A DNA stretch of 64,000 nt from Massalongia carnosa (GCA_965645245.1 OZ287074.1:682001-746000), one strand, 5' to 3'. Positions 20,801 to 61,508 are shown, numbered from the stretch's first letter. Translations and numbers: made by a program. The notes: generated by a model from the sequence alone, not told the origin.

Positions 20801-22271
20801 ATATAATGGTCAGACTTTATCTGTTGAAGGATCAAAGCTCATTACTCCTTCGACTACCATTGACATTCCTGGTGGTTCGGGGACTGTGGTCTACAACGGG
20901 CAGACCCTTACAATCGGGCCGTCTCAAATTGCAGGGCCCAGCACGACAATCCAATTTAGGCAAATCCCGGCGGGTATTACTGCTGCCCCTTCCATAACTA
21001 TCGCTGCAGGCCATACTTTTGCCCTAGGCCCTTCGGCTGCAGTTTTTGGATCTTTGACCTACTCATTCTTGCCGGGCCAGGCCCCTACGACCATCTTGGA
21101 TCATGGTCAGGTTGTTACCATTGGTCCCAATGGTGTTCAGATTGGTGGCACTACGATACCCGTTCCTGCTCCTCCGCCAAACTTTTCGCTGGTCACGGCG
21201 GGAGGGTTGACCTTTTCTGTAGCGCCGTCGGAGGCTGTTATCGGAGGCCACACATTCACCGTCGGATCAGACAATACTCCCACAACAACGGTCATCAATG
21301 GTCAAACAATCAGCATAGGCCCACATGGCATTGGGCTGGCTAGCACAACAGTTGCGCTCCCGGGAGCCGAACCGACATTTTCGCCTGTCACCGCAGGAGG
21401 CCTGACGTTCTCTGTTGCGCAGTCAGAAGCCATCATTGGAGGTCGCACATATACTATTGGATCGGATTCAGCACCTACAACCACCGTTGTCAACGGGCAA
21501 ACTATCAGCATCGGCCCTCATGGTATAGGGCTGGCGAGTACTACGGTGGCCCTACCTGGATTCGAACCAAGTTTCTCGGCTGTGACTGCTGGTGGTTTAA
21601 CATTCTCCGTGGCGGCATCAGAAGCCGTAATTGGAGGTCACACATTCACGATTGGGCCAGGCAGCAAGGCTACCACCACGGTTATTAACGGCCAAACGAT
21701 AAGCATTGGTCCCCATGGGATCGGTCTTGCCACCACTACCGTTGCTCTCCCACCATCCCAGTCAAGCTTCTCCATCGTTACCGAAGGCGATCTGACCTTT
21801 TCTCTTTCTCCCTCGGAAGCCGTCATCGGTGGGAAAACTTTCACCGTTGGACCCGGATCTGTGCCCATCACTACTGTCTTGAATGGCGAGACTATAACCA
21901 TCGGTCCCAGTGGTATTGGTCTTAAAGGGACGACAGCAGCTTTGCCAACACCGACCGGAGCCCAAACGCCATCGGCTGTGACGGTCGATGGATTGACATT
22001 CTCCGTCGAACCCACCGACGTTATCATTAGCGGGACCACTTATCCCATTGGCGTTGGAGCCACCCCTACCACCATCGTCGTGGGTACAGAAACCATCAGT
22101 CTTGGCCCGGGAGGCATAGGACTGCCTTCCACCACCATACCGGTGCCATCCAGTCCTTCCAGTACCGGCTCCACCAAACATTCTGGTGCTTTATCGCAGA
22201 TTGTCTCGGCGAACACTCTTTTGCTTTCCGCGTTGCCAGCGAGCTTTGTATTACTAGTATTTTGTATGTGA
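17895..22271 (+). CDS. Large secreted, probably GPI-anchored, repeat-rich cell-surface protein (~1440 aa); 1 intron
   Basis: ATG at 17895 gives signal peptide MGRSQLLGLLLLSLSFTSAVSA. Intron 17998-18048 joins it in frame (YRIRRRAYLQN) to the long ORF. It has an S/T-rich region, G/S/N/Q repeats, ~60-aa beta-rich repeats and a hydrophobic C-terminus. Confidence 0.85.
19347..20084 (+). repeat. Coding tandem repeat, 6 x 123 bp (41 aa)
   Basis: Unit GSNGGSGSGSNQSP-GSNSGTGSGS(N/T)QPQ-GSNGNAPGSNQPQ, nearly identical at DNA level. Confidence 0.95.
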
Positions 22272-48434: not shown

Positions 48435-49664
48435 ATGGCCTCCAGCTCCTCCGCCGAGGCATCCACCCCTCTCTCCGAAGGCCAGACCTTCGATCTTCCC
48501 CCTCCGGACTTCAAAAACGAAGCCTCTCTTGCCCCTCACGTCATCACGCCTGATGCCCGGAGCCACTCGATCCAGAAATTTCCCCACGAGTGGTACAATT
48601 TTTCTATTCAAGCTGCCAATCAGATCACGTCCCTCTTGAGCTCCCTGGACATAAGAACGAGTCAGTGCGAGTCTTTAGAATCGGAGCGTGATCAAATCCG
48701 CCGTCAGCTGCGTGACTCCAATGACGAACTGATCGCGGCTCGAGCCTTGATCATCACCCTTCGCGGACACCCATTCCCCATCGGGCACGCAGACTCCCGA
48801 TCGGAGAGACTCTCGGACATTCCCAAGTTCTTGGGAAAGAAGGAGGATTTACGTTCCTGGACAACCCAACTGCACTTGAAACTTTTCGTCAATAAAGACC
48901 GCTTCACCGGAGAAAAATCAGGACTCATCTATGCTATCAGCCGATTGGAGGGGCGTGCGCTCTCCCAGGTACAACCCTATGTCAATTCACAGCACGAGAT
49001 CTCTCTGCCGGATGTACCGTCCCTCCTGTTGCTGTTGGAACATGCGTTCGGGGACCCTGACCGAAAGGCCACCGCGCAGCGTGAGCTGCGTGCCCTTCGT
49101 CAGGCAAATCGAGAGTTCCATGTGTACTTAGCAGATTTCCAACGCATCGCCCCGGACACCAATTTTGATGAGGAAGCTCAACGCGCTGCCCTGCAACAAG
49201 GTATCAGCGAAGAACTTCAACAGCTAATGGTAACGCAGCAGGTCCCGGAGGACCTCAACGAGCTGATCTCGTTACTGCAACGGCTAGATACTCGCCAGCG
49301 CAATGTCAATGCCCTGCTCCGGAAGTCCTACTCGCCCCGGTCCGCCCCATCTTCTTCTGATGCGGGGACCACACTTCGTAACCATCCGTCTGGGGGGGTT
49401 GCCCTACCCCGAACCGTCTCCCCCGCCGCCGCCGCTCCCGCCTCGCCTCCAGACGCCATGGACCTCTCCGCCTTCTCTCGAGGCAAGTTGCCCTCGGCGG
49501 AAGTAACTCGTCGTATGAACGAGGGACTGTGCCGTTACTGCGGGGAGTCCGGGCACTTTGCGGCCAACTGTCCTAAACTGGCACGAAGGGGGAAACCCAA
49601 GCCGTCACGACTCAACGAGTCTACCCTTGCGGAGTCGACGGAAAACGCAGTGCCTTCGAGCTAA
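48435..49664 (+). CDS. Gypsy Gag
   Basis: FGDPDR, LRQ, DAMDLS and zinc knuckle CRYCGESGHFAANC; ORF is open. Confidence 0.92.
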   Translation: MASSSSAEASTPLSEGQTFDLPPPDFKNEASLAPHVITPDARSHSIQKFPHEWYNFSIQAANQITSLLSSLDIRTSQCESLESERDQIRRQLRDSNDELIAARALIITLRGHPFPIGHADSRSERLSDIPKFLGKKEDLRSWTTQLHLKLFVNKDRFTGEKSGLIYAISRLEGRALSQVQPYVNSQHEISLPDVPSLLLLLEHAFGDPDRKATAQRELRALRQANREFHVYLADFQRIAPDTNFDEEAQRAALQQGISEELQQLMVTQQVPEDLNELISLLQRLDTRQRNVNALLRKSYSPRSAPSSSDAGTTLRNHPSGGVALPRTVSPAAAAPASPPDAMDLSAFSRGKLPSAEVTRRMNEGLCRYCGESGHFAANCPKLARRGKPKPSRLNESTLAESTENAVPSS

Positions 49665-52630
49665 GTCGCTCTCGAAGACCGACGGAAGGATTTCCTGTGT
49701 CAATTTCGGCTTTTTCCATATCAGAAGACTCGTTAGATGGTAGACATTTCGTCGTATCCATAGAACTCTCTGTAGAAAATCGCGTTTTGCACACACATGC
49801 TTTGATAGATTGCGGTGCTTCTGGCTATGCATTGATTGATTCGTCCTTCGCGCAAAGAAATTCCCTGCCTCTCACCCCCCTTGTCCGCCCTCGCGTCCTC
49901 GAAGTTGTGGACGGCCGACCAGCCGCGGCTGGTATGCTCACACACCTGGCCAAGTTGAAGTTGAACGTCAACGGGCATCACGAGCACGGCTCATTCCTTG
50001 TGACCCAGTTGGGTCACTATCCCGTAGTCCTGGGAGTCAAATGGCTCCAAATTCACAACCCTTTCGTCAGCTGGTCTCGAAATACTCCGACCTTCTCGTC
50101 CTCGTATTGTCGTCTGGAGTGTTTAGAGAATAAACACGTCCCTCTTGTTATTCCTGGCCTTTCTGATCTTTCGGAAGAGTCTCCTCCCCCGGAGTCTGCT
50201 TCCTCAGTGCGTCTTGACCCTCTTGAAATCCGTGAGAACAAGGTCTCTCACGCGAATCCTAAATTCTTGAAAACCACCGAGTTTATTGAACATATCGAGT
50301 TTATTGAACATCCCGAGCCCATGATCCGAGTCCCGAGTTCACGTCTTGAACCCTCGAAAATCACCAAGTTCATTGAACAAGGAATAAGAATGGATCCTCG
50401 CAAAGTTCAAACCATCAAGGACTGGATCACGCCCAAGAATGTTAAAGATATTCAAGCCTTTGTAGGATTCGCGAACTTCTATCGCCGTTTCGTCAAAAAT
50501 TTCTCCGCCATGGCCGCACCCCTGATAAAGCTGACTCGAAAGAGTGTGATCTTTTCTTGGAATCAGGAATGCGAGACCGCATTTCAAAGATTAAAGGACG
50601 CGTTCATGAGCGACCTTGTTCTGATGCATTTTGATCCTGAGAAAAAGATCGTTGTAGAAGTTGACGCCTCGGATTGGGTAGTGGGGGGAGTACTCTCGCA
50701 ACATGACGACGAAGGAATTCTAAGACCTGTGGCATTCTTCTCAAAGAAACACTCACCAGCGGAAGTAAATTATGAGATTTATGATAAAGAGCTTATGGCT
50801 ATCGTTCGTGCCTTTGAGGAATGGAGAGCTGAACTCGAAGGAGCCGCATTTCCAATACAAGTAATTTCCGATCATAAGAATCTGGAATATTTCATGACAA
50901 CGAAGCAATTGAGTACAAGGCAAGCACGCTGGTCCGAATATCTTTCTCGTTTTGATTTTCAGATTGTGTACCGCCCAGGGAAGAGTGGGGGAAAGCCCGA
51001 TGCCCTTACCAGAAGGTCTCAAGACCTACCTGAGGGGGATGATCCACGAGTGAAGATCCAACATCAAACGGTCTTGAAACCTCGAAATCTTGAACTTCTA
51101 GCGAACGGATTAGCAAAGGAATTTTCGGAAGAGAACGATATTGAAGCAGGTTCAGATCAAGAGGAAGTCAAGACCCTGGAAGAACTATGGCAGGAGGCTC
51201 TGAAAAATGATCCTTTCCCTGTCAAGATACTGAACCTGTTGCGGTCAGGAGCAAGGCACTCCAAGGATATCTCGTTAGTGGAATGCACGGAAATCGACGG
51301 TCGATTACACTATCGAGAGAAAATGTTCGTTCCCGACTCTCATGCTTTGAAAATGAGGCTCTGCGAGTCTATTCATGATAGTCCAGTGGCAGGTCACCCC
51401 GGCCGAGCCAAGACCTTTGATCTTTTACAGCGCCACTATTACTGGCCTCGATTTTATCAGTTCGTAGCGAAGTATGTACAGCACTGTCAAGTATGCGCAC
51501 GAAGCAAATCATCTCGTCAAGGGAAAATGGGAGTTCTCAGACCACTGCCCATTCCCGAGCGTCGCTGGCAAGATATCTCAATGGACTTTGTCACTGGACT
51601 GCCGGAAAGCAATGGATTCGACGCCATACTGGTCATGATCGATCGTCTGTCGAAAAGACGTCACTTCTCTCCATGTCTCACCACAATCAATGCTCAAGAA
51701 TTGGCCGAGCTCCTTCTTGGGGATATCTGGAAACTCCATGGACTACCAAGCACCATTGTATCAGATCGAGGAGTGCTTTTCGTGGCGGAGTTTTGGAAAA
51801 AGCTGTGTCAAGGGTTGGGAATCAAGAGTCTTCTGTCGACAGCCTTCCATCCAGAAACAGATGGGCAGATGGAGCGAGTAAACGCCTCCATGGAACAATA
51901 CCTTCGCAGTTACACGGATTATCTTCAGGATGACTGGGCAAATTGGTTGCCCATGGCGGAATTTACAGGAAACAATGTCGTGTCCGAAACGACTGGGTGC
52001 AGCCCTTTTCTTGCGGAGATGGGATACCACCCGCGTATGGGCTTTGAATCAATGGAACCCTCCAGGTCCCCGGCCAGTTTGAACGCAGGAGAATTCGCCA
52101 AGAAAATGCAAGATATCACGATCGTGCTGCAAGAGGAAATGAGATTCGCGCAAGCACGATACGAAGCAGGGGCCAACGAACATCGCGTGCCAGCACCGGT
52201 TTATCAAGTAGGAGACGCACTATGGCTAAGCATAAAAAACATACGTACCCAACGACCCGCTCGAAAGCTCGATTGGAAGAATCTAGGCCCATTCAAGATA
52301 TCTAAGGTGGTAAGCAAGTATGCGTATCGACTCGATCTCCCCATCGGCATGAAGATTCATCCCGTGTTTCATGTATCTCTTCTCTCGCCCGTGCCTCAAG
52401 ATTCTCACCCTGATCACGTTCCACCTCCTCCTCCACCAGTCGAAGTTGACGGCGAAGAGGAGTATGAAGTGGAGGATATCCTCAATTCCAAGAAGTTCCG
52501 GAATCACTTGAAGTATCTGGTGCAGTGGATCGGTTGGAACGACCCCACCTGGGAGTACGCAGAGTACCTCATCAATGCCAACGAAAGAGTAGCAGACTTT
52601 CACCGACGATATCCAGAAAAGCCCCGTTAA
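49640..52630 (+). CDS. Gypsy Pol in the -1 frame: protease, RT connection, RNase H, integrase, chromodomain; RT catalytic core absent
   Basis: ALIDCGAS; no YxDD; GIRMDP..W..P; VDASD, YEIYDKEL, SDHKNL; HDSPVAGH..CQVC, SMDF, SDRG, HPETDGQMER; YEVEDIL..YLVQWIGW..TWE. Slippery site G GAA AAC at 49640. Confidence 0.92.
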   Translation, partial: GKRSAFELSRSRRPTEGFPVSISAFSISEDSLDGRHFVVSIELSVENRVLHTHALIDCGASGYALIDSSFAQRNSLPLTPLVRPRVLEVVDGRPAAAGMLTHLAKLKLNVNGHHEHGSFLVTQLGHYPVVLGVKWLQIHNPFVSWSRNTPTFSSSYCRLECLENKHVPLVIPGLSDLSEESPPPESASSVRLDPLEIRENKVSHANPKFLKTTEFIEHIEFIEHPEPMIRVPSSRLEPSKITKFIEQGIRMDPRKVQTIKDWITPKNVKDIQAFVGFANFYRRFVKNFSAMAAPLIKLTRKSVIFSWNQECETAFQRLKDAFMSDLVLMHFDPEKKIVVEVDASDWVVGGVLSQHDDEGILRPVAFFSKKHSPAEVNYEIYDKELMAIVRAFEEWRAELEGAAFPIQVISDHKNLEYFMTTKQLSTRQARWSEYLSRFDFQIVYRPGKSGGKPDALTRRSQDLPEGDDPRVKIQHQTVLKPRNLELLANGLAKEFSEENDIEAGSDQEEVKTLEELWQEALKNDPFPVKILNLLRSGARHSKDISLVECTEIDGRLHYREKMFVPDSHALKMRLCESIHDSPVAGHPGRAKTFDLLQRHYYWPRFYQFVAKYVQHCQVCARSKSSRQGKMGVLRPLPIPERRWQDISMDFVTGLPESNGFDAILVMIDRLSKRRHFSPCLTTINAQELAELLLGDIWKLHGLPSTIVSDRGVLFVAEFWKKLCQGLGIKSLLSTAFHPETDGQMERVNASMEQYLRSYTDYLQDDWANWLPMAEFTGNNVVSETTGCSPFLAEMGYHPRMGFESMEPSRSPASLNAGEFAKKMQDITIVLQEEMRFAQARYEAGANEHRVPAPVYQVGDALWLSIKNIRTQRPARKLDWKNLGPFKISKVVSKYAYRLDLPIGMKIHPVFHVSLLSPVPQDSHPDHVPPPPPPVEVDGEEEYEVEDILNSKKFRNHLKYLVQWIGWNDPTWEYAEYLINANERVADFHRRYPEKPR

Positions 52631-53772: not shown

Positions 53773-54721
53773 ACAAGGACATGAAATCATGATGAACTGA
53801 TTTTCAAAAGAACTGTCAAAGGGAACTCGAATTATTTCTTCAGAAAACGGATTTATCTTTGACAAGATAGCACAGATGTTTCTTCAGCATTATATTGATC
53901 ATTCAGACTCTGAATCAGAAGCAGACTGAAAAATAATGCTCATGAATAATCATGACAGTCATTGTACTTCTGAGTTCATAGCTCTTGCTAATATAAATCA
54001 CATTCGTTCTTATTCACTTATACCGCATTTTACACACTGTATGCAGTCGCTTGATGTTGGAGTGTTTCAACCTTCTAAACACTGACATGATATGACAATT
54101 TAAGATGCTTTACTGGAATTCAATGTTGGGTATACATTACAGCGATTTCTTGCGGATTTTACTAAGATACGTGATAATACTTTCAAGAATTGTATTATTC
54201 GAAGTACTTTTGAGAAATCAGGAATGTGGCCTGTTAATGCTAAAAACTGCATCTCACTGCTTAAAACTTTCAAGCCGTCTGATGCTCAAGAAAAGCTACA
54301 CAATAAAGAAAAAGAGCCTACTCTTCCAATCTTGCCTCATATTCAGTCAACATCTTCAATGAATGTTGAAATAGGACTTCAAACATGCCAGAAGAAAATT
54401 CAACAAGAAATGTTGTGGAGTGATCCGGCTCGCTCAAAGCAATTTGAGTCGTTTTTTAATGATACAAAAATCGTTTGTACACAAGCTACGTTTGATGATG
54501 TATTCATACTCCGATATGTCACCGACCGTAGGGCGGCCCATGCGGGCAAAGCTATCTAAGTTATGTTACATGGAAAACCTTTTTCAGGTGTAAAAACCAT
54601 ATCCCTTGATACCTGTCCGATGTGACACTGGGTCGACGTCGGACAGGAGACGCAGAGCGAAAATCATGTGAGAACTATGACGCCTTGTGAGATAAGAAGG
54701 AAAAGAGAAGTGAGACTACTG

Positions 54722-56163
54722 TTAATCGTACAATAGTGTAGATGCCAGTGAGAATTGGGTCAGTAGACCTGTTTTCATTAGCCAAGTAGTTAATATCTTT
54801 AGAGTTTTTGATGTTTCGGTCAGCTGTTGATAGTTATTCGTGCCAGCGGCGCGAAACATCTGTTCTCTATTGTCAATAAGTCTATAGAACATAATTACGT
54901 GTTCTGGAGTTTGTCTGTGCCAGCCACATGGGCAGGCCGGTGAGGTGACGGCGGGGACCCGTCGCTGGTAGAGGAAGTCAGCTAGACCGATCTTACCGGT
55001 GCGGATCTGTATTGTCAGGGCGCTTTCTGCCTTTTTTAGCAGCGTGTGTATTTTCAGTCGTTTTTTGCTCAGTGGGACTGATTGCGCTATGGGGGGTTCG
55101 GTGACGCGATTTTGATATGCGCTCCACGAGTCGTTCCAGGCTTTCAGCTGTCGTGCTTTAATTGTCTGCATTTGTTTTTGACGAGCCAACGCTGCTACGG
55201 AGACTTCGCGGAGATGCGCTGAGGGGTCGGACCATGGTAGGTTGTGCTTTGGGTGGTTGAACGATTTTTGCGTCGATCAGTAGGTTTTTGGCCCAGATGT
55301 GCTTCAGCTCTCCCGGAGTGGATTTTTGAAGGCGTTTGCGACCTGCCTTGCCTTGGAGTTTGTTAACTATTTTGCTGCATGCGGAGAAAATGACCTTCGA
55401 TTGACCTCCGGCTCGGAGTCGATGTCTGGCCTGCGCCTGTAGCGTGTCGAGGTATACATCTATGGGTGCTATGTAAGTCTCTGCTTCAAGAACTAGAATG
55501 GGAGTGGCTTTAAAGGCACCGGCTATGGTGCGAAGGCAGTTGTTTTGCATAACGGAGAGCTTGCTCGTTGACGTTTTTGACTTTTTGACTTCTTTGGGCA
55601 TGTGCCATACGGTTGACCCGTATGTCATGACCGGACGCACTACGGCGCTGTAAACTTGCCTTGCTTTGGTGAAGGTGGCATCCTAAGTCGATGTGGAGAT
55701 TTTGTTAATGCTATGGATTGTTTAACCATTTTCTTTTGCGTTTTGCGAACGTGCGGTCTCCATTTCAATTTGGTGTCAATTTGCAAGCCCAAGACTCTAA
55801 TGCCCGTTTTTGGTTCAATTTCGGTGCTTGCAATTTTGATAGATGCAGCCATATTGAATCTTTTGGGATTTCTAGACAAGTGAATGAGTTCGTACTTCGT
55901 CGGAGCGAATAGAGATCCGTGTCGGGAAGCCCACTTTTCGCATTGTCTGTGTATTGACTCCAGAGTCTTGCAATTCTCTTCGGTGCTTTTTCCGTATGCC
56001 AAAATATTGGCATCGTCTACAAATCCTATGGCACTTGTGTTTGTGCCTGGTCGCTCACATATTTCCAATAGGTCTGCATTATAGAATAGATAAAGGATGG
56101 ATGAGAGAGGGGAGCCCTGTGGTATACCAGTTCTCACCGCGAATCGTCCAGTCGCTTTTCGAT
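54722..56163 (-). pseudogene. Tad1-like LINE ORF2 remnant (RT domains 4-7, thumb, C-terminal zinc finger), frameshifted
   Basis: TGIPQGSPLSSILYLFYNADL, GFVDD, KYELIH, LGLQIDTKLKW, VMTYGSTVW, IAGAFKATP, QIRTGKIGL..FL, CPCG..QTPEHV. Confidence 0.92.
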
Positions 56164-56967
56164 CTAAGAATGATAAAATAGAGTTGACATCTCCTTCGTG
56201 AAGTCTATATCCCAGTTTTCGTTCATCTCACTGGTGCGTTTTACGGCCCAAGACTATTGATGAATTCTACGATTGGGGTGAACGACGTCCCTTTCGCCCA
56301 GGTCAAACCCAGTTTACTCCTTAAGCATATATCAAGGGCAAGTCTAGCCGTAGCCCATGCGCCGGCGAACCGACGGGGTCTCGTTACGAGCGAGATAGAC
56401 ATTCCTTGCTCTATATACACAGACATGCGCATACTGTCCTCTCGGTCTATGCAGACGGTCTCCGTACGGTGGCCGCCATTGCATACCACGCCTCACGGGT
56501 TTTTTACGCCCACTTCGCGTTATTCACAAAGGTCTCCCGTTTATGAACCGACCATGGCTCGCAGGGATATCGACCACTGTGCTCCTGACCAGGCAGTATA
56601 GTATCGATTTTCCGTCCCTACTAACCAAAACGAGTCGAGGACAACTCGGAGGGGTGCTCGTTTGAAATTCGTCTATTAGCTCAGGGCCTAGACTGTTATC
56701 AATTAACGGGTTCCTCGTACATTGCCCTCTTCTTGTCCCAAGGGTGTCCTATTTGATGACTAGGTTGCCTCCACCATCCCCGGTACGACTCCGGTTCGGG
56801 CCGTGTTGCTCACGGTAGCCATCAATCTGATGGTTTTCATAACCCAAATCCCTTGTATCGTGTAGGGTGTGACCCTACACTATGTGTCTATATGTTTTAT
56901 TTCTTTCAGCCGGAGGGCTCCGTGTTGTAGACGAAGGAGACCCGTGTGATAGACATAGCTGACCCGT

Positions 56968-57728
56968 GTCGTACGTCTCTAGCTCTCAGCCGATGACTGC
57001 ATGAAAGGACTTGAACCTTTAAGAGTATGACCGAACGTTGTTAACGAGGTCTATGAAAATCTTATTAACGAGGTCTTCGAGAACAATAGTAACGAAGTTC
57101 CGCTGAACTCTTTTCATTCGTTTTGTGATCCATCGAGGTCTACCCGTGTCAAATCCACACCATGCCCATGTCAAAATGCATTATTTTCAGCTGATGACTG
57201 CTAGAAAGGACTTGCACCTCTAAAATATGTACTCCGATATTAACGGGATGCAGATCTGCCTTAACGAGCCCCCGCAGAACCCCCTACATAGGGACGTGTT
57301 ATTGATTTGTGGCTGTGTGTTTTGTGACTATGTGTTTTACGACTGTGTGTTTTGTGACTGTGTGTTTTGTGACTGTGTGTTTATGACTGTGTGTTTGATG
57401 ACTGTGTGCTTTGTGGTTTATGACTATGTGCTTTGTGACTGTGTTTTGTGACTCTGTGCTTTCCTCGATTTTATTTAATAGGCCGGGCCTGTTAACTGAG
57501 ATATTTTTATTCCGCTCCGTGATGGAGTTTTCTTTAGGTGGCAACATTCGCCTCGGTGCCTGTACGCGTTCTGTTGATTCCAGCTGATGACTGCATGGGG
57601 AGACTTGAACTCTCAGGAGCTAGAACGCGTGTCGACTGTGCCCGGGTGGGAGGTGATGCGGCTCCTTTGGTCCACATCTTCTTCCAGCTGATGACTGCAT
57701 GAAGGGACTTGAGCCCTTAGAAGCATGG
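56968..57728. ncRNA. Four dispersed copies of a candidate structured RNA motif, function unknown
   Basis: Core CAGCYGATGACTGCWWG-stem-ACTTGMR-stem at 56987, 57188, 57581 and 57685. The stems vary in sequence but mostly keep pairing. Confidence 0.55.
57306..57462. repeat. ~15-bp minisatellite (GACTGTGTGTTTTGT)n, ~10 degenerate copies
   Basis: Seen directly, inside the LINE chimera. Confidence 0.9.
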
Positions 57729-58650
57729 TGCAGGGACGCGCGCATGCGACCCCCCGGCGGTTGGCCTTCGAATCCTCTTCCGTACGTACGTCTGCGACGC
57801 GTGTGAACGCGTTAAATTAGCATTGTTTTGATGCGAAGAGATGGGAGCAAATCTATATGTTTGACGGTCGCCCCACGGTGAGGCCTTTGGCGTCTCCATG
57901 GTGAGGACCGATGGTGTAGAAGGAGGACCGATGGTGTAGAAGGAGGAGGACCGATCACAAGCTACGTTTAATGATATTCAATTATTTATATATCAGAAAA
58001 GAAGAGAAGATGACTTAAAACAGAAATCTATCTTTCGTAAGCGATTACGAACCTTAGGTTCAGGATTAGGGCTTACTAAAGAGAATGCTGAGAAGATGAT
58101 TGCAGCAAAGGAAAAACAAGCTAAAGAAACAGAAGCAAAGAAGCAGCATCAGACATGAATGGAGATTTGGCGTATGAAAAGAGACGTCAAATATGCCGAA
58201 GGATTGATTGCTCGAAAGCAAGAAAGAAATCGTTTACGACAAACTAAATTGCTTTCAAAACAAGATCTTGCTATTTCCTCCGAGCATCTTATTCCTATTC
58301 CCGATCCCGAAGCAATTTGGAAGGCAACAGATGTTACTTGACAAGAAGAAGAGAGAAAGAAAGCGAAAAAGACTAAATCTCAAGTATATAATGAAGATGA
58401 AGATGAGGCGGAGACAACATTCATCACAGATGTTACAGGTGATTCTTCTTTGCAAAGAGATTTTCTGCGTTTTGATGAAGACGATATTGATGAAGGCCTG
58501 CTGGGTCAGAAACCTCTACGTGGTGCAGGCTATCAACACCTCCTCGGAGGTGGCCAATATCTGATCATCGCCAAGGCTGAAGCCCACCTCGGTGGCCGTT
58601 TGAATGATCAACGTCTCTACTGATCATTCACCACTTCGAAGGCATACAAA

Positions 58651-58967
58651 GCCCATTCATTCGGAATGGCCACACCCCCTCAGGCCGAAGCCTTTCACCT
58701 CATCGAAAAAGCCCATTCAGTCGGAATGGCCACACCCCCCAGGCCGAAGCCTTTCACCTCATCGAAAAAGCCCATTTAGTCGGAATGGCCACACCCCCCA
58801 GGCCGAAGCCTTTCACCTCATCGAAAAAGTCCATTCAGTCGGAATGGCCACACCCCCCAGGCCGAAGCCTTTCACCTCATCGAAAAAGCCCATTCAGTCG
58901 GAATGGCCACACCCCCCAGGCGGAAGCCTCTCACCTCATCGAAAAAGCCCATTCATTCGGAATGGCC
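58651..58967. repeat. 59-bp tandem array, 5 copies plus a partial, each with an internal palindrome
   Basis: Unit GCCCATTCAGTCGGAATGGCCACACCCCCCAGGCCGAAGCCTTTCACCTCATCGAAAAA starting at 58651, 58711, 58770, 58829, 58888 and 58947. Confidence 0.95.
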
Positions 58968-59330
58968 AAATTTTCACATTTTCATTTGTACGACACCACG
59001 ATCTGCCCTCGATCATGGCCAGTCTATCATCTATTGAGCCAAAATGGTTAAAGAGAGAGAATGTTCGTCGAACGTGTGGAGATACACTGTCTAGTTCATC
59101 GGGTCTATAGGATTCCTAGCGCTTGAAGATCTGGGTGTATGCACCGCGTGGTAGAAGAACGATCTCGTTGCGTTCAATATGGAATAAAAGGGAGTGGTTT
59201 TACCCTGGGGGCCAGGTTTCCACTTCCTGACTGTTTTTTATGTACAATAATGTGATAGCAAATCTGATAGCCAGCAAATGTAGTAAACTAACTAGCCACT
59301 AGTATTAAAACCGGAGTCTGCCGCCTTGGC

Positions 59331-60658: not shown

Positions 60659-61508
60659 ATGGCATCGTCCTCAACCGGTTCATCGCCCCTCCTCTAGTTA
60701 GCTGCCTAGATCCCAATCATAGGTCCAAGGCTGACTGCTGCTCTCAAGCTCCTGTATCGCCTACCGCACAACCATTCTCACCGAACACACCACCTCTGCC
60801 TCCTCGCAAATCTCCTCTCTCGCATCTATCATCCTCCCCAAAATCGATCACCGCACTCCTCAAAAACTTACCTACACCCACAACCAGAACTTCATCCATT
60901 ACATAGCTGACGCACCCTCCGACTATCCATCTGCCGACCCCTCTGCGGGCGGCTTGACTTATCTAGTCATCGCCTCGTCTTCCTTTGGTCGCCGCATCCC
61001 TTTCGGCTACTTGGTCGAAATAAAGAAACAGTTCCTTGCACGGTATGATCCCCAGAACACGGACTTTGCATCTCTGCCACCCTATGGAGCCGCGGATTTC
61101 AACGCGCAATTGAAGAGCCTGATGGTGGGGTACGGGACGACGCAGGCGGGCAAGCAAGATGCGATTGCGAATGTGCAGCACGACATTGACGACGTTAAGG
61201 GGATCATGACAGAGAACATTGAGAGGGTTTTGGAGAGGGGGGAGCGAATTGATCTGCTGGTCGACAAGACGGATCGCTTAGGAATAGGGGCGCATGACTT
61301 TCGGGTGCGGAGCAGGGGTCTGAAGCGGCAGATGTGGTGGAAGAATGTGAAGTTGATGGTTTTGTTGGGCGTTGTGATTGTGTTTTTGATTTATCTGTTT
61401 GTGGGCTTTGGATGTGGGTTGCCAGGTAAGAAAAACTCATTTTTTGTTGGGTGAAGAAGACACTAATGGAATTATGTATTAGGATGGTCGAGGTGTGTAG
61501 GGAAATGA
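60659..61508 (+). CDS. VAMP7: Longin-domain R-SNARE (VAMP7/Nyv1-like); 2 introns
   Basis: Spliced LLYSCIAYRTTILTEH; longin domain (FGRRIPFGYL); synaptobrevin motif VKGIMTENIERVLERGERIDLLVDKT; MWWKN followed by a TM helix; last exon GWSRCVGK*. Confidence 0.92.

Follow-up and report, generated by a model that had tools for sequence, protein, structure and literature searches.

The four short sequences that recur between positions 56983 and 57723 of the window (the whole 64-kb stretch of DNA analysed) are, judging from their alignment, instances of a predicted three-way-junction motif of ~45 nt, which appears as the repeated building block of a non-coding block referred to here as X. X and the 3' half of a Tad-like LINE inserted as one unit, within one 20-nt target-site duplication. 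As far as sequence comparison can place it, the motif is without a catalogued family, whereas the element around it is of a known kind. Since 2005-2007, one fungus has been known to harbour chimeric LINE retroelements whose non-coding 5' partner is unexplained, and the module would offer a concrete, mutable handle on what tethers such RNAs to the LINE machinery and on why fungal LINEs capture them. If the motif proved to be inert, the insertion would still represent a MINE-like family outside Magnaporthe. The features discussed below are as follows (coordinates are those of the window; R1 is a covariance model built from eight copies of the module):

54480..54499, no strand assigned: target-site duplication, left copy, 20 nt, 19/20 identical to 57956-57975
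54500..56245, minus strand: LINE part, 5'-truncated and decayed, comprising the last ~510 ORF2 codons (from the RT on), interrupted by frame breaks, and ~220 nt of 3' UTR
56246..57955, minus strand (a leaning): block X, ~1.7 kb, made up of the scaffold, the modules and the repeats at its end; its LINE-side boundary can be placed only to within about 56190-56246
56246..56968, no strand assigned: X scaffold, 14-22-nt blocks identical to the related element L015, between diverged, indel-rich stretches
56678..56720, no strand assigned: probable degenerate fifth module, read by eye, between the same two scaffold blocks as L015 copy a
56983..57025, no strand assigned: module copy 1, with closing stem, 3-bp hairpin, 4-nt linker and 5-bp hairpin; R1 72.2 bits
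57184..57226, no strand assigned: module copy 2, a loop variant with one plus-strand mismatch in the 5-bp stem; R1 61.1 bits
57283..57473, no strand assigned: 15-nt microsatellite, T/G-rich, inside X between copies 2 and 3
57577..57619, no strand assigned: module copy 3, proximal stem absent; R1 66.7 bits
57681..57723, no strand assigned: module copy 4, a loop variant; R1 70.9 bits
57903..57955, no strand assigned: terminal 20-nt direct repeats where the insertion ends in X, two units complete and one partial
57956..57975, no strand assigned: target-site duplication, right copy, 20-nt direct repeat

Module copies in the window and beyond

A 17-nt core pattern, searched with up to two mismatches, matched the 64-kb window at 56987, 57188, 57581, and 57685 only, all on the plus strand. 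Shuffled sequence gave a mean of 0.06 core matches, and none of 100 shuffles contained four. A repeat search recovered these four as well; they are spaced 201, 393, and 104 nt apart and have 72% identity over 50 nt. The sequence between the copies is unrelated, except for the 15-nt microsatellite, which lies within the 393-nt gap and thereby enlarges it. The original prediction had described four copies at these positions and spacings with unrelated sequence between them, and both searches agree; the stems that it quoted are likewise all present as written. Each copy is made up of an invariant 13-nt stretch, a 4-nt linker, a 5-bp hairpin, one unpaired A, and flanks that pair with one another. 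The 13-nt stretch is able to form a 3-bp hairpin (CAG/CTG) with a 7-nt loop, and the loop of the 5-bp hairpin is also 7 nt long and nearly fixed. Copy 3 is closed by a 9-bp distal stem (57564-57572 / 57623-57631) instead of the proximal one, and the same distal stem occurs in L015 copy c. The position at 56678..56720 is probably a degenerate fifth module; R1 did not detect it at E<=10, and the same degenerate state of this position was found in another genomic copy (P0124).

A metagenome scan with an exact 17-mer returned 90 loci, 88 of which are chance matches to the 17-mer without the second hairpin. The other two, L015 and L049, are one locus seen twice. All four modules of this locus are complete; they lie 255, 63, and 77 nt apart and have new compensating stem sequences. 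This brings the dataset to eight distinct related copies (four from the window and four from L015/L049) drawn from two elements. The window element and L015 have ~67% mean column identity (roughly 30% divergence), and the module is conserved across both, with 20 of its 51 alignment columns invariant in elements that are otherwise ~67% identical. The module recurs in the diverged (~67-72%) element of a second organism, with different compensatory stems.

The covariance model R1 was built from these eight copies and run on the window with filters off. It scores its source copies at 61-72 bits; the next best match in the 64-kb window reaches 10.4 bits, with nothing higher outside the modules, and the next best among the 90 metagenome loci, which had been pre-selected for the 17-mer, reaches 28 bits. 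R1 is usable for finding related elements in other fungal genomes. Viral and prokaryote collections gave 0 module matches. A protein-word search with a reading frame that spans the modules gave no candidate, a HMMER search with an L015 reading frame gave three marginal matches, all to unrelated repeat proteins, and a string search of the literature for the 13-mer gave only two unrelated primer listings. With respect to the setting of the L015 copy, its left flank (680-724) is similar to a module's first 8 nt together with the 5' flank before them, and its right flank (1858-1885) looks, by eye, like a decayed module remainder; the L015 copy may have inserted into a module that belonged to another X copy.

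The LINE-linked insertion and its published analogues

The 20-nt duplication bounds an insertion of 3,456 nt. A reverse transcriptase domain (RVT_1, E=1.9e-10) is found on the minus strand of the LINE fragment, and tblastn aligned residues 267-777 of a close relative (P0001) at 56245..54731, with 80-84% identity and frame breaks. The LINE relatives are proteins of 1119-1120 aa that combine an APE endonuclease with a reverse transcriptase (RT). The ORF2 span in the insertion corresponds to residues ~612-1120 plus 3' UTR, the left end of the insertion lying ~220 nt past the ORF2 stop, and tblastn found the endonuclease and the N-terminal RT half absent from the insertion. The duplication and the minus-strand RT fragment bear out the retro-insertion context that had been proposed for the motif. 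All module copies sit in decayed elements. Within the LINE 3' UTR there is also a 12-bp inverted repeat (54612-54647), the kind of stem-loop recognised by stringent-type LINE reverse transcriptases.

The X reading frames tested had no Pfam match at E<=1, and tblastn with three full or partial ORF2 relatives found nothing in X. X is collinear with L015 positions ~790-1857, at ~67% mean column identity, and its pattern is unlike that of coding sequence because identical blocks of 14-22 nt alternate with diverged, indel-rich stretches. Compared with column shuffles, the scaffold gives a modestly better consensus fold (z -2.26 on the plus strand and -2.17 on the minus), the equal scores giving no strand signal. 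X measures ~1.7 kb in the window and 1.14 kb in L015, and in both elements the modules are arrayed 170-975 nt from the LINE-sense 5' end. The microsatellite is absent from L015, where the modules are 63-77 nt apart. At its end, L015 has a 23-nt repeat related to the 20-nt repeat of the window, and the terminal tandem repeats of the two elements share a core. Both the L015 copy (1.14 kb) and the window copy (3.46 kb) have flanking direct repeats, which in L015 are 7 nt long (713-719 and 1858-1864); the L015 copy keeps the repeat-bearing end, without the LINE 3' part.

X is multicopy, as judged from a spurious ORF across its scaffold, which matches five further proteins, each from a different Mb-scale contig, with 88-95% identity. 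These further copies presumably belong to the window's own genome. In one of the proteins (P0122), the N-terminus appears, on visual inspection, to run on into the antisense-RT stretch found in the window, and frame searches with it gave no significant match. That L015 has this junction too is weakly supported (z 3.3); a single junction seems to be common to at least two of the copies. The similarity between X and the LINE 3' UTR is not significant (best E 0.064, z <=2.2), and end-to-end pairing of the L015 copy is not above that of shuffles, 101 of 300 being as good.

For the build of the insertion, the closest published analogue is MINE of Magnaporthe, to which X is likened by its architecture. 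MINE consists of a full-length, 1.1-kb, non-coding WEIRD RNA joined in the same sense to a 5'-truncated MGL LINE, and its origin is put down to the LINE reverse transcriptase switching templates (PMC2104539). The same paper describes the function of WEIRD as unknown, and states that WEIRD was found neither as solo copies nor as a similar sequence in other genomes available at the time (PMC2104539). The insertion has this MINE-like build, with a non-coding 5' part and a 5'-truncated LINE in one 20-nt duplication. The likeness extends to the size and side of the non-coding part (~1.1 kb on the 5' side; X is 1.14 kb in L015), to the 5'-truncated LINE on the 3' side, to the flanking duplication (10-20 bp in MINE, 20 nt in the window), and to the presence of multiple copies. 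On the other hand, MINE is described with many different junctions, unlike the single one apparently common to at least two copies here, and the available text describes no repeated module for WEIRD (PMC2104539), whereas X carries a module array. Two 20-nt WEIRD primers are printed in PMC3978060; they have no match in X, their best sites lying elsewhere with 5-7 mismatches, a result that concerns these two primers. Mammalian chimeric retrocopies of the U6-L1 type, which the same paper also attributes to template switching of the LINE reverse transcriptase (PMC2104539), are similar to the insertion in that a non-coding RNA is joined to a 5'-truncated LINE within one duplication. They differ from it in their 5' partner, which here is long (1.1-1.7 kb) and endowed with a repeated motif of its own.

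Pairing, folding and known RNA families

Pairs were counted in an ungapped, 51-column alignment of the eight copies, with a three-helix structure of 12 pairs (96 cells). Over the whole structure, 91.7% of the cells are paired on the plus strand and 94.8% on the minus, and on neither strand did any of 500 shuffles match the observed paired fraction or the covariation score. When the partners were slid by 1-3 columns, 28-52% of the cells were paired on the plus strand and 43-62% on the minus. Both sides change in 8 of the 12 pairs. The covarying parts are the 5-bp hairpin (87.5% of cells paired on the plus strand, 97.5% on the minus) and the 4-bp closing stem, which follows the core immediately after a single unpaired A (90.6% and 87.5%, respectively); across the eight copies, perfect pairing is achieved by five distinct sequences of the 4-bp stem and by three of the 5-bp stem. 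For these two helices, the prediction of a covarying module, here ~45-55 nt long, stands. The CAG/CTG 3-bp hairpin has no covariation support because it is invariant in all eight copies, and, like the closing G-C pair of the 5-bp hairpin, it is uninformative on pairing since it never varies. The mismatches in the stems are all transitions, and are found on both strands. The eight copies are paralogous and come from two independent elements, and related sequences can beat shuffles without any structure; the covariation is best taken as support for the predicted pairing, and not as proof of it.

A different outer stem had also been proposed for each copy. These longer stems are present; however, they are barely better than pairings between flanks of different copies, the mean duplex energy being -15.2 kcal/mol for a copy's own flanks vs. 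-12.4 kcal/mol (sd 5.4) for cross flanks, a weak margin. Folding of single copies gave z-scores from -1.55 to +0.54 on the plus strand and from -1.84 to -0.21 on the minus. The junction fold has a mean energy of -3.3 kcal/mol (plus) or -4.1 kcal/mol (minus) and is rarely the minimum-energy fold; it is so for copies w1 and Ld, on the minus strand only. Any such fold would probably depend on a partner or on tertiary contacts.

At gathering thresholds, Rfam has no match in the window, L015, or L049, and at E<=10 no Rfam match overlaps any module on either strand, in keeping with the original prediction, in which the motif had been left unassigned. Several likenesses to known RNAs were considered. 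On the minus strand, the 5-bp hairpin has a G-C closing pair and a 7-nt loop that fit the T-arm/T-loop and B-box pattern in 6/8 copies, while two window copies carry one T-loop change each; the T-loop or B-box resemblance that had been noted on this strand holds to that extent. Chance alone yields ~2.3 T-arm-like hairpins per shuffled window. Unlike a tRNA, the module has no cloverleaf, D arm, or anticodon arm, and its minus-strand arm order differs. ARAGORN found 0 tRNA genes in the window, L015, and L049, there was no Rfam tRNA match at E<=10, and the suggested tRNA-like signal, with no cloverleaf by either method, is not supported. One canonical-looking T-arm hairpin was observed elsewhere by pattern search (~21551-21567, minus strand), where neither ARAGORN nor Rfam places a tRNA; it may be chance or a relic. 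In a Pol III type-2 promoter, which had also been suggested, an A box lies 30-60 nt before the B box on the same strand; the B-box-like core is present in the same 6/8 copies, but no A box was found upstream of any module at up to one mismatch. One-mismatch A-box matches number 30 in the window vs. 21.4 expected, and the sole one in X (56574-56584, minus strand) is on the wrong side of the modules.

Among ribozymes, a resemblance to the twister-sister L4 loop had been put forward. The minimal twister-sister-like form published consists of a stem, a 5+6-nt internal loop, and a stem (PMC11620745); a C-A cleavage site belongs to this ribozyme as well. The junction strands of the module are 0, 4, and 1 nt, a layout unlike that form, and with no Rfam match the resemblance is not supported. 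The module has in common with the hammerhead a 7-nt box and a three-way junction. This hammerhead-type heptamer is found in 7/8 copies (one base is changed in copy 1), where it occupies the loop of the 3-bp hairpin and not the junction strand between helices I and II; the second conserved purine box is absent after the second hairpin in 8/8 copies, there is no Rfam match, and the hammerhead was rejected. A C/D box snoRNA was rejected as well: a C-box-like hexamer is present, the D box before the closing stem is absent in 8/8 copies, and there is no Rfam snoRNA match.

Strand and possible roles of the module

The LINE sense (minus strand) is somewhat favoured for X. The G-U wobble evidence had been called mixed, and it is, 3 cells pairing on the plus strand only and 6 on the minus only. 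The leaning to the minus strand comes from the T-loop fit in 6/8 copies, the fuller pairing of the 5-bp stem on that strand, the slightly more stable junction fold, the MINE-type build, and the three T residues (A in LINE sense) next to the 7-nt repeat at the LINE-side end of L015. The plus sense is suggested by the L015 copy, which keeps the repeat end without the LINE 3' part (as 5' truncation gives), and by G-U pairs of some stems that occur on the plus strand only; terminal short repeats are also commoner at the 3' ends of LINEs, which counts for the plus sense. Base composition is uninformative on strand.

The reading that we prefer, at a probability of roughly 40% and hence tentatively, is that X RNA is read in the LINE sense and that the module array would act as a multivalent protein-docking platform that retains X with the LINE machinery. 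With X read from the minus strand, each module would be a tRNA T-arm look-alike next to an invariant mini-hairpin. The array of 4-5 redundant modules could then serve as a docking platform for a LINE-encoded protein or a host tRNA-handling factor, and docking would keep X RNA with the LINE reverse-transcription machinery, such that X would be copied together with the LINE RNA. In the window's family, one module position has degenerated and the rest are kept, which fits redundancy. Structured, protein-binding UTR RNAs are known in non-LTR elements, for instance the 5' and 3' UTR RNAs of R2 and the 3' stem-loops of stringent-type LINEs. Like these, X is a non-coding part of a LINE-linked element with a conserved predicted fold and little conservation of stem sequence, and the fold is retained in non-autonomous copies; unlike these, the putative docking unit is a short module repeated 4-5 times, and not one large fold. 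The docking reading is weakened by the thermodynamic weakness of the junction, which is usually not the minimum-energy fold, and by the small number of independent elements, two, whose relatedness can inflate covariation scores. It is also weakened by the decay of all elements that hold copies, by the 4-bp closing stem, which pairs slightly better on the plus strand, by the constant repeat end of L015, which suggests a 3' end and hence the plus sense of a target-primed element, and by the minus-strand arm order, which is not that of a tRNA and for which no tRNA model matches. A more specific and quite improbable version is that the module imitates the elbow of a tRNA without its acceptor, as a T-arm plus a short D-arm-like hairpin that the closing stem ties into a larger RNA. 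The array might then let a WEIRD-like RNA ride on tRNA-handling or LINE proteins and become a preferred acceptor in template switching which, if true, would explain the repeated origin of MINE-type chimeras.

In a rather unlikely alternative, the element is read from the plus strand. X would then be the 3' region, the modules and terminal 20-nt repeats would form the signal for a stringent-type LINE reverse transcriptase, and the antisense LINE would be a 5' passenger. The two elements share the repeat terminus and differ at the other end (3.46 kb vs. 1.14 kb), which is the pattern of 5' truncation. Read on the plus strand, the arms follow a tRNA-like order (closing stem, small hairpin, 4-nt linker, 5-bp hairpin, closing stem), the loop of the first hairpin has a U-turn-like Y-U-N3-R-N pattern, and the G-U pairs that exist on this strand only belong to the closing stem and two distal stems. 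However, such an element would require a replicating master with 1.7 kb of antisense LINE, and the left end of the insertion lies ~220 nt past the ORF2 stop, just where a LINE 3' end is expected. Moreover, the 5-bp stem has 5 minus-only cells vs. 1 plus-only, the fixed loop fits the T-loop consensus on the minus strand and not on the plus, and MINE has both of its parts in the same sense (PMC2104539). The weak RNA fold would suit an element that works as DNA, with the modules as promoter or chromatin monomers of a 5' region, such as B-box-like TFIIIC sites and E-box-like sites, in the manner of some LINE 5' UTR monomer arrays. The B-box consensus is matched by the minus-strand 5-bp hairpin core in 6/8 copies, a palindromic hexamer lies inside the invariant 13-mer, and the distance of the array from the LINE-sense 5' end, 170-975 nt in both elements, is compatible with such a region. 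We nevertheless consider this unlikely: protein-DNA sites need no compensating changes, yet 8/12 pairs show them, and neither an A-box-like site upstream of the modules nor a tRNA-like gene was found.

An absence of present function is, in our estimation, as improbable as a role at the DNA level. The modules would be duplicated relics, perhaps of an old small-RNA-derived sequence, and their hairpins would have been kept by recent duplication, gene conversion, or templated quasi-palindrome mutation. Every copy lies in a dead element, one module position has decayed, and the stem mismatches are all transitions, on both strands; one stem arm is common to three L015 copies, which suggests recent duplication, and the chance frequency of T-arm-like hairpins (~2.3 per shuffled window) also suits relics. 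Against this, 20 columns have stayed invariant across paralogues with unalignable flanks and across two elements that are ~67% identical, the perfect stems differ among copies (five 4-bp and three 5-bp versions), and 28-62% of the cells are paired in the slid controls. Retroelements often carry ribozymes, and the module shares its heptamer with the hammerhead core and forms a predicted three-way junction with fixed loops, such that a self-cleaving or processing signal was also considered, in which X RNA would be trimmed at each module, the module being either a small ribozyme or a cleavage site of the RNase P/Z type. This is the most doubtful of the explanations and hardly to be expected, as neither strand of any module gave a hammerhead, twister, twister-sister, hatchet, pistol, HDV, or tRNA match at E<=10, the second hammerhead box is missing from 8/8 copies, the 4-nt strand of the junction (0, 4, 1 nt) varies, and four to five cuts would destroy one RNA.

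Other features of the window were recorded in passing. An HDV-like ribozyme candidate at 58493-58568 (plus strand) matches two related Rfam models over their full length, RF02682 at 26.0 bits and RF00094 at 23.8 bits, both below the gathering thresholds; it is not part of the insertion and sits closely upstream of an array of tandem repeats with 59-nt periodicity. This array (58617-59029) was recovered as six overlapping 118-nt copies, 59 nt from start to start, four of which are 95-100% identical to the reference copy, and the ORFs over it have no Pfam match. A Ty3/gypsy-type pol frame of 1017 aa at 49577-52630 (plus strand) has RNase H, integrase zinc-binding and core, Tf2-type SH3, and chromodomain domains. 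Finally, a gene with Longin and synaptobrevin domains, a host SNARE, is located at 60735-61454 (plus strand) and indicates that the window is eukaryotic nuclear DNA.
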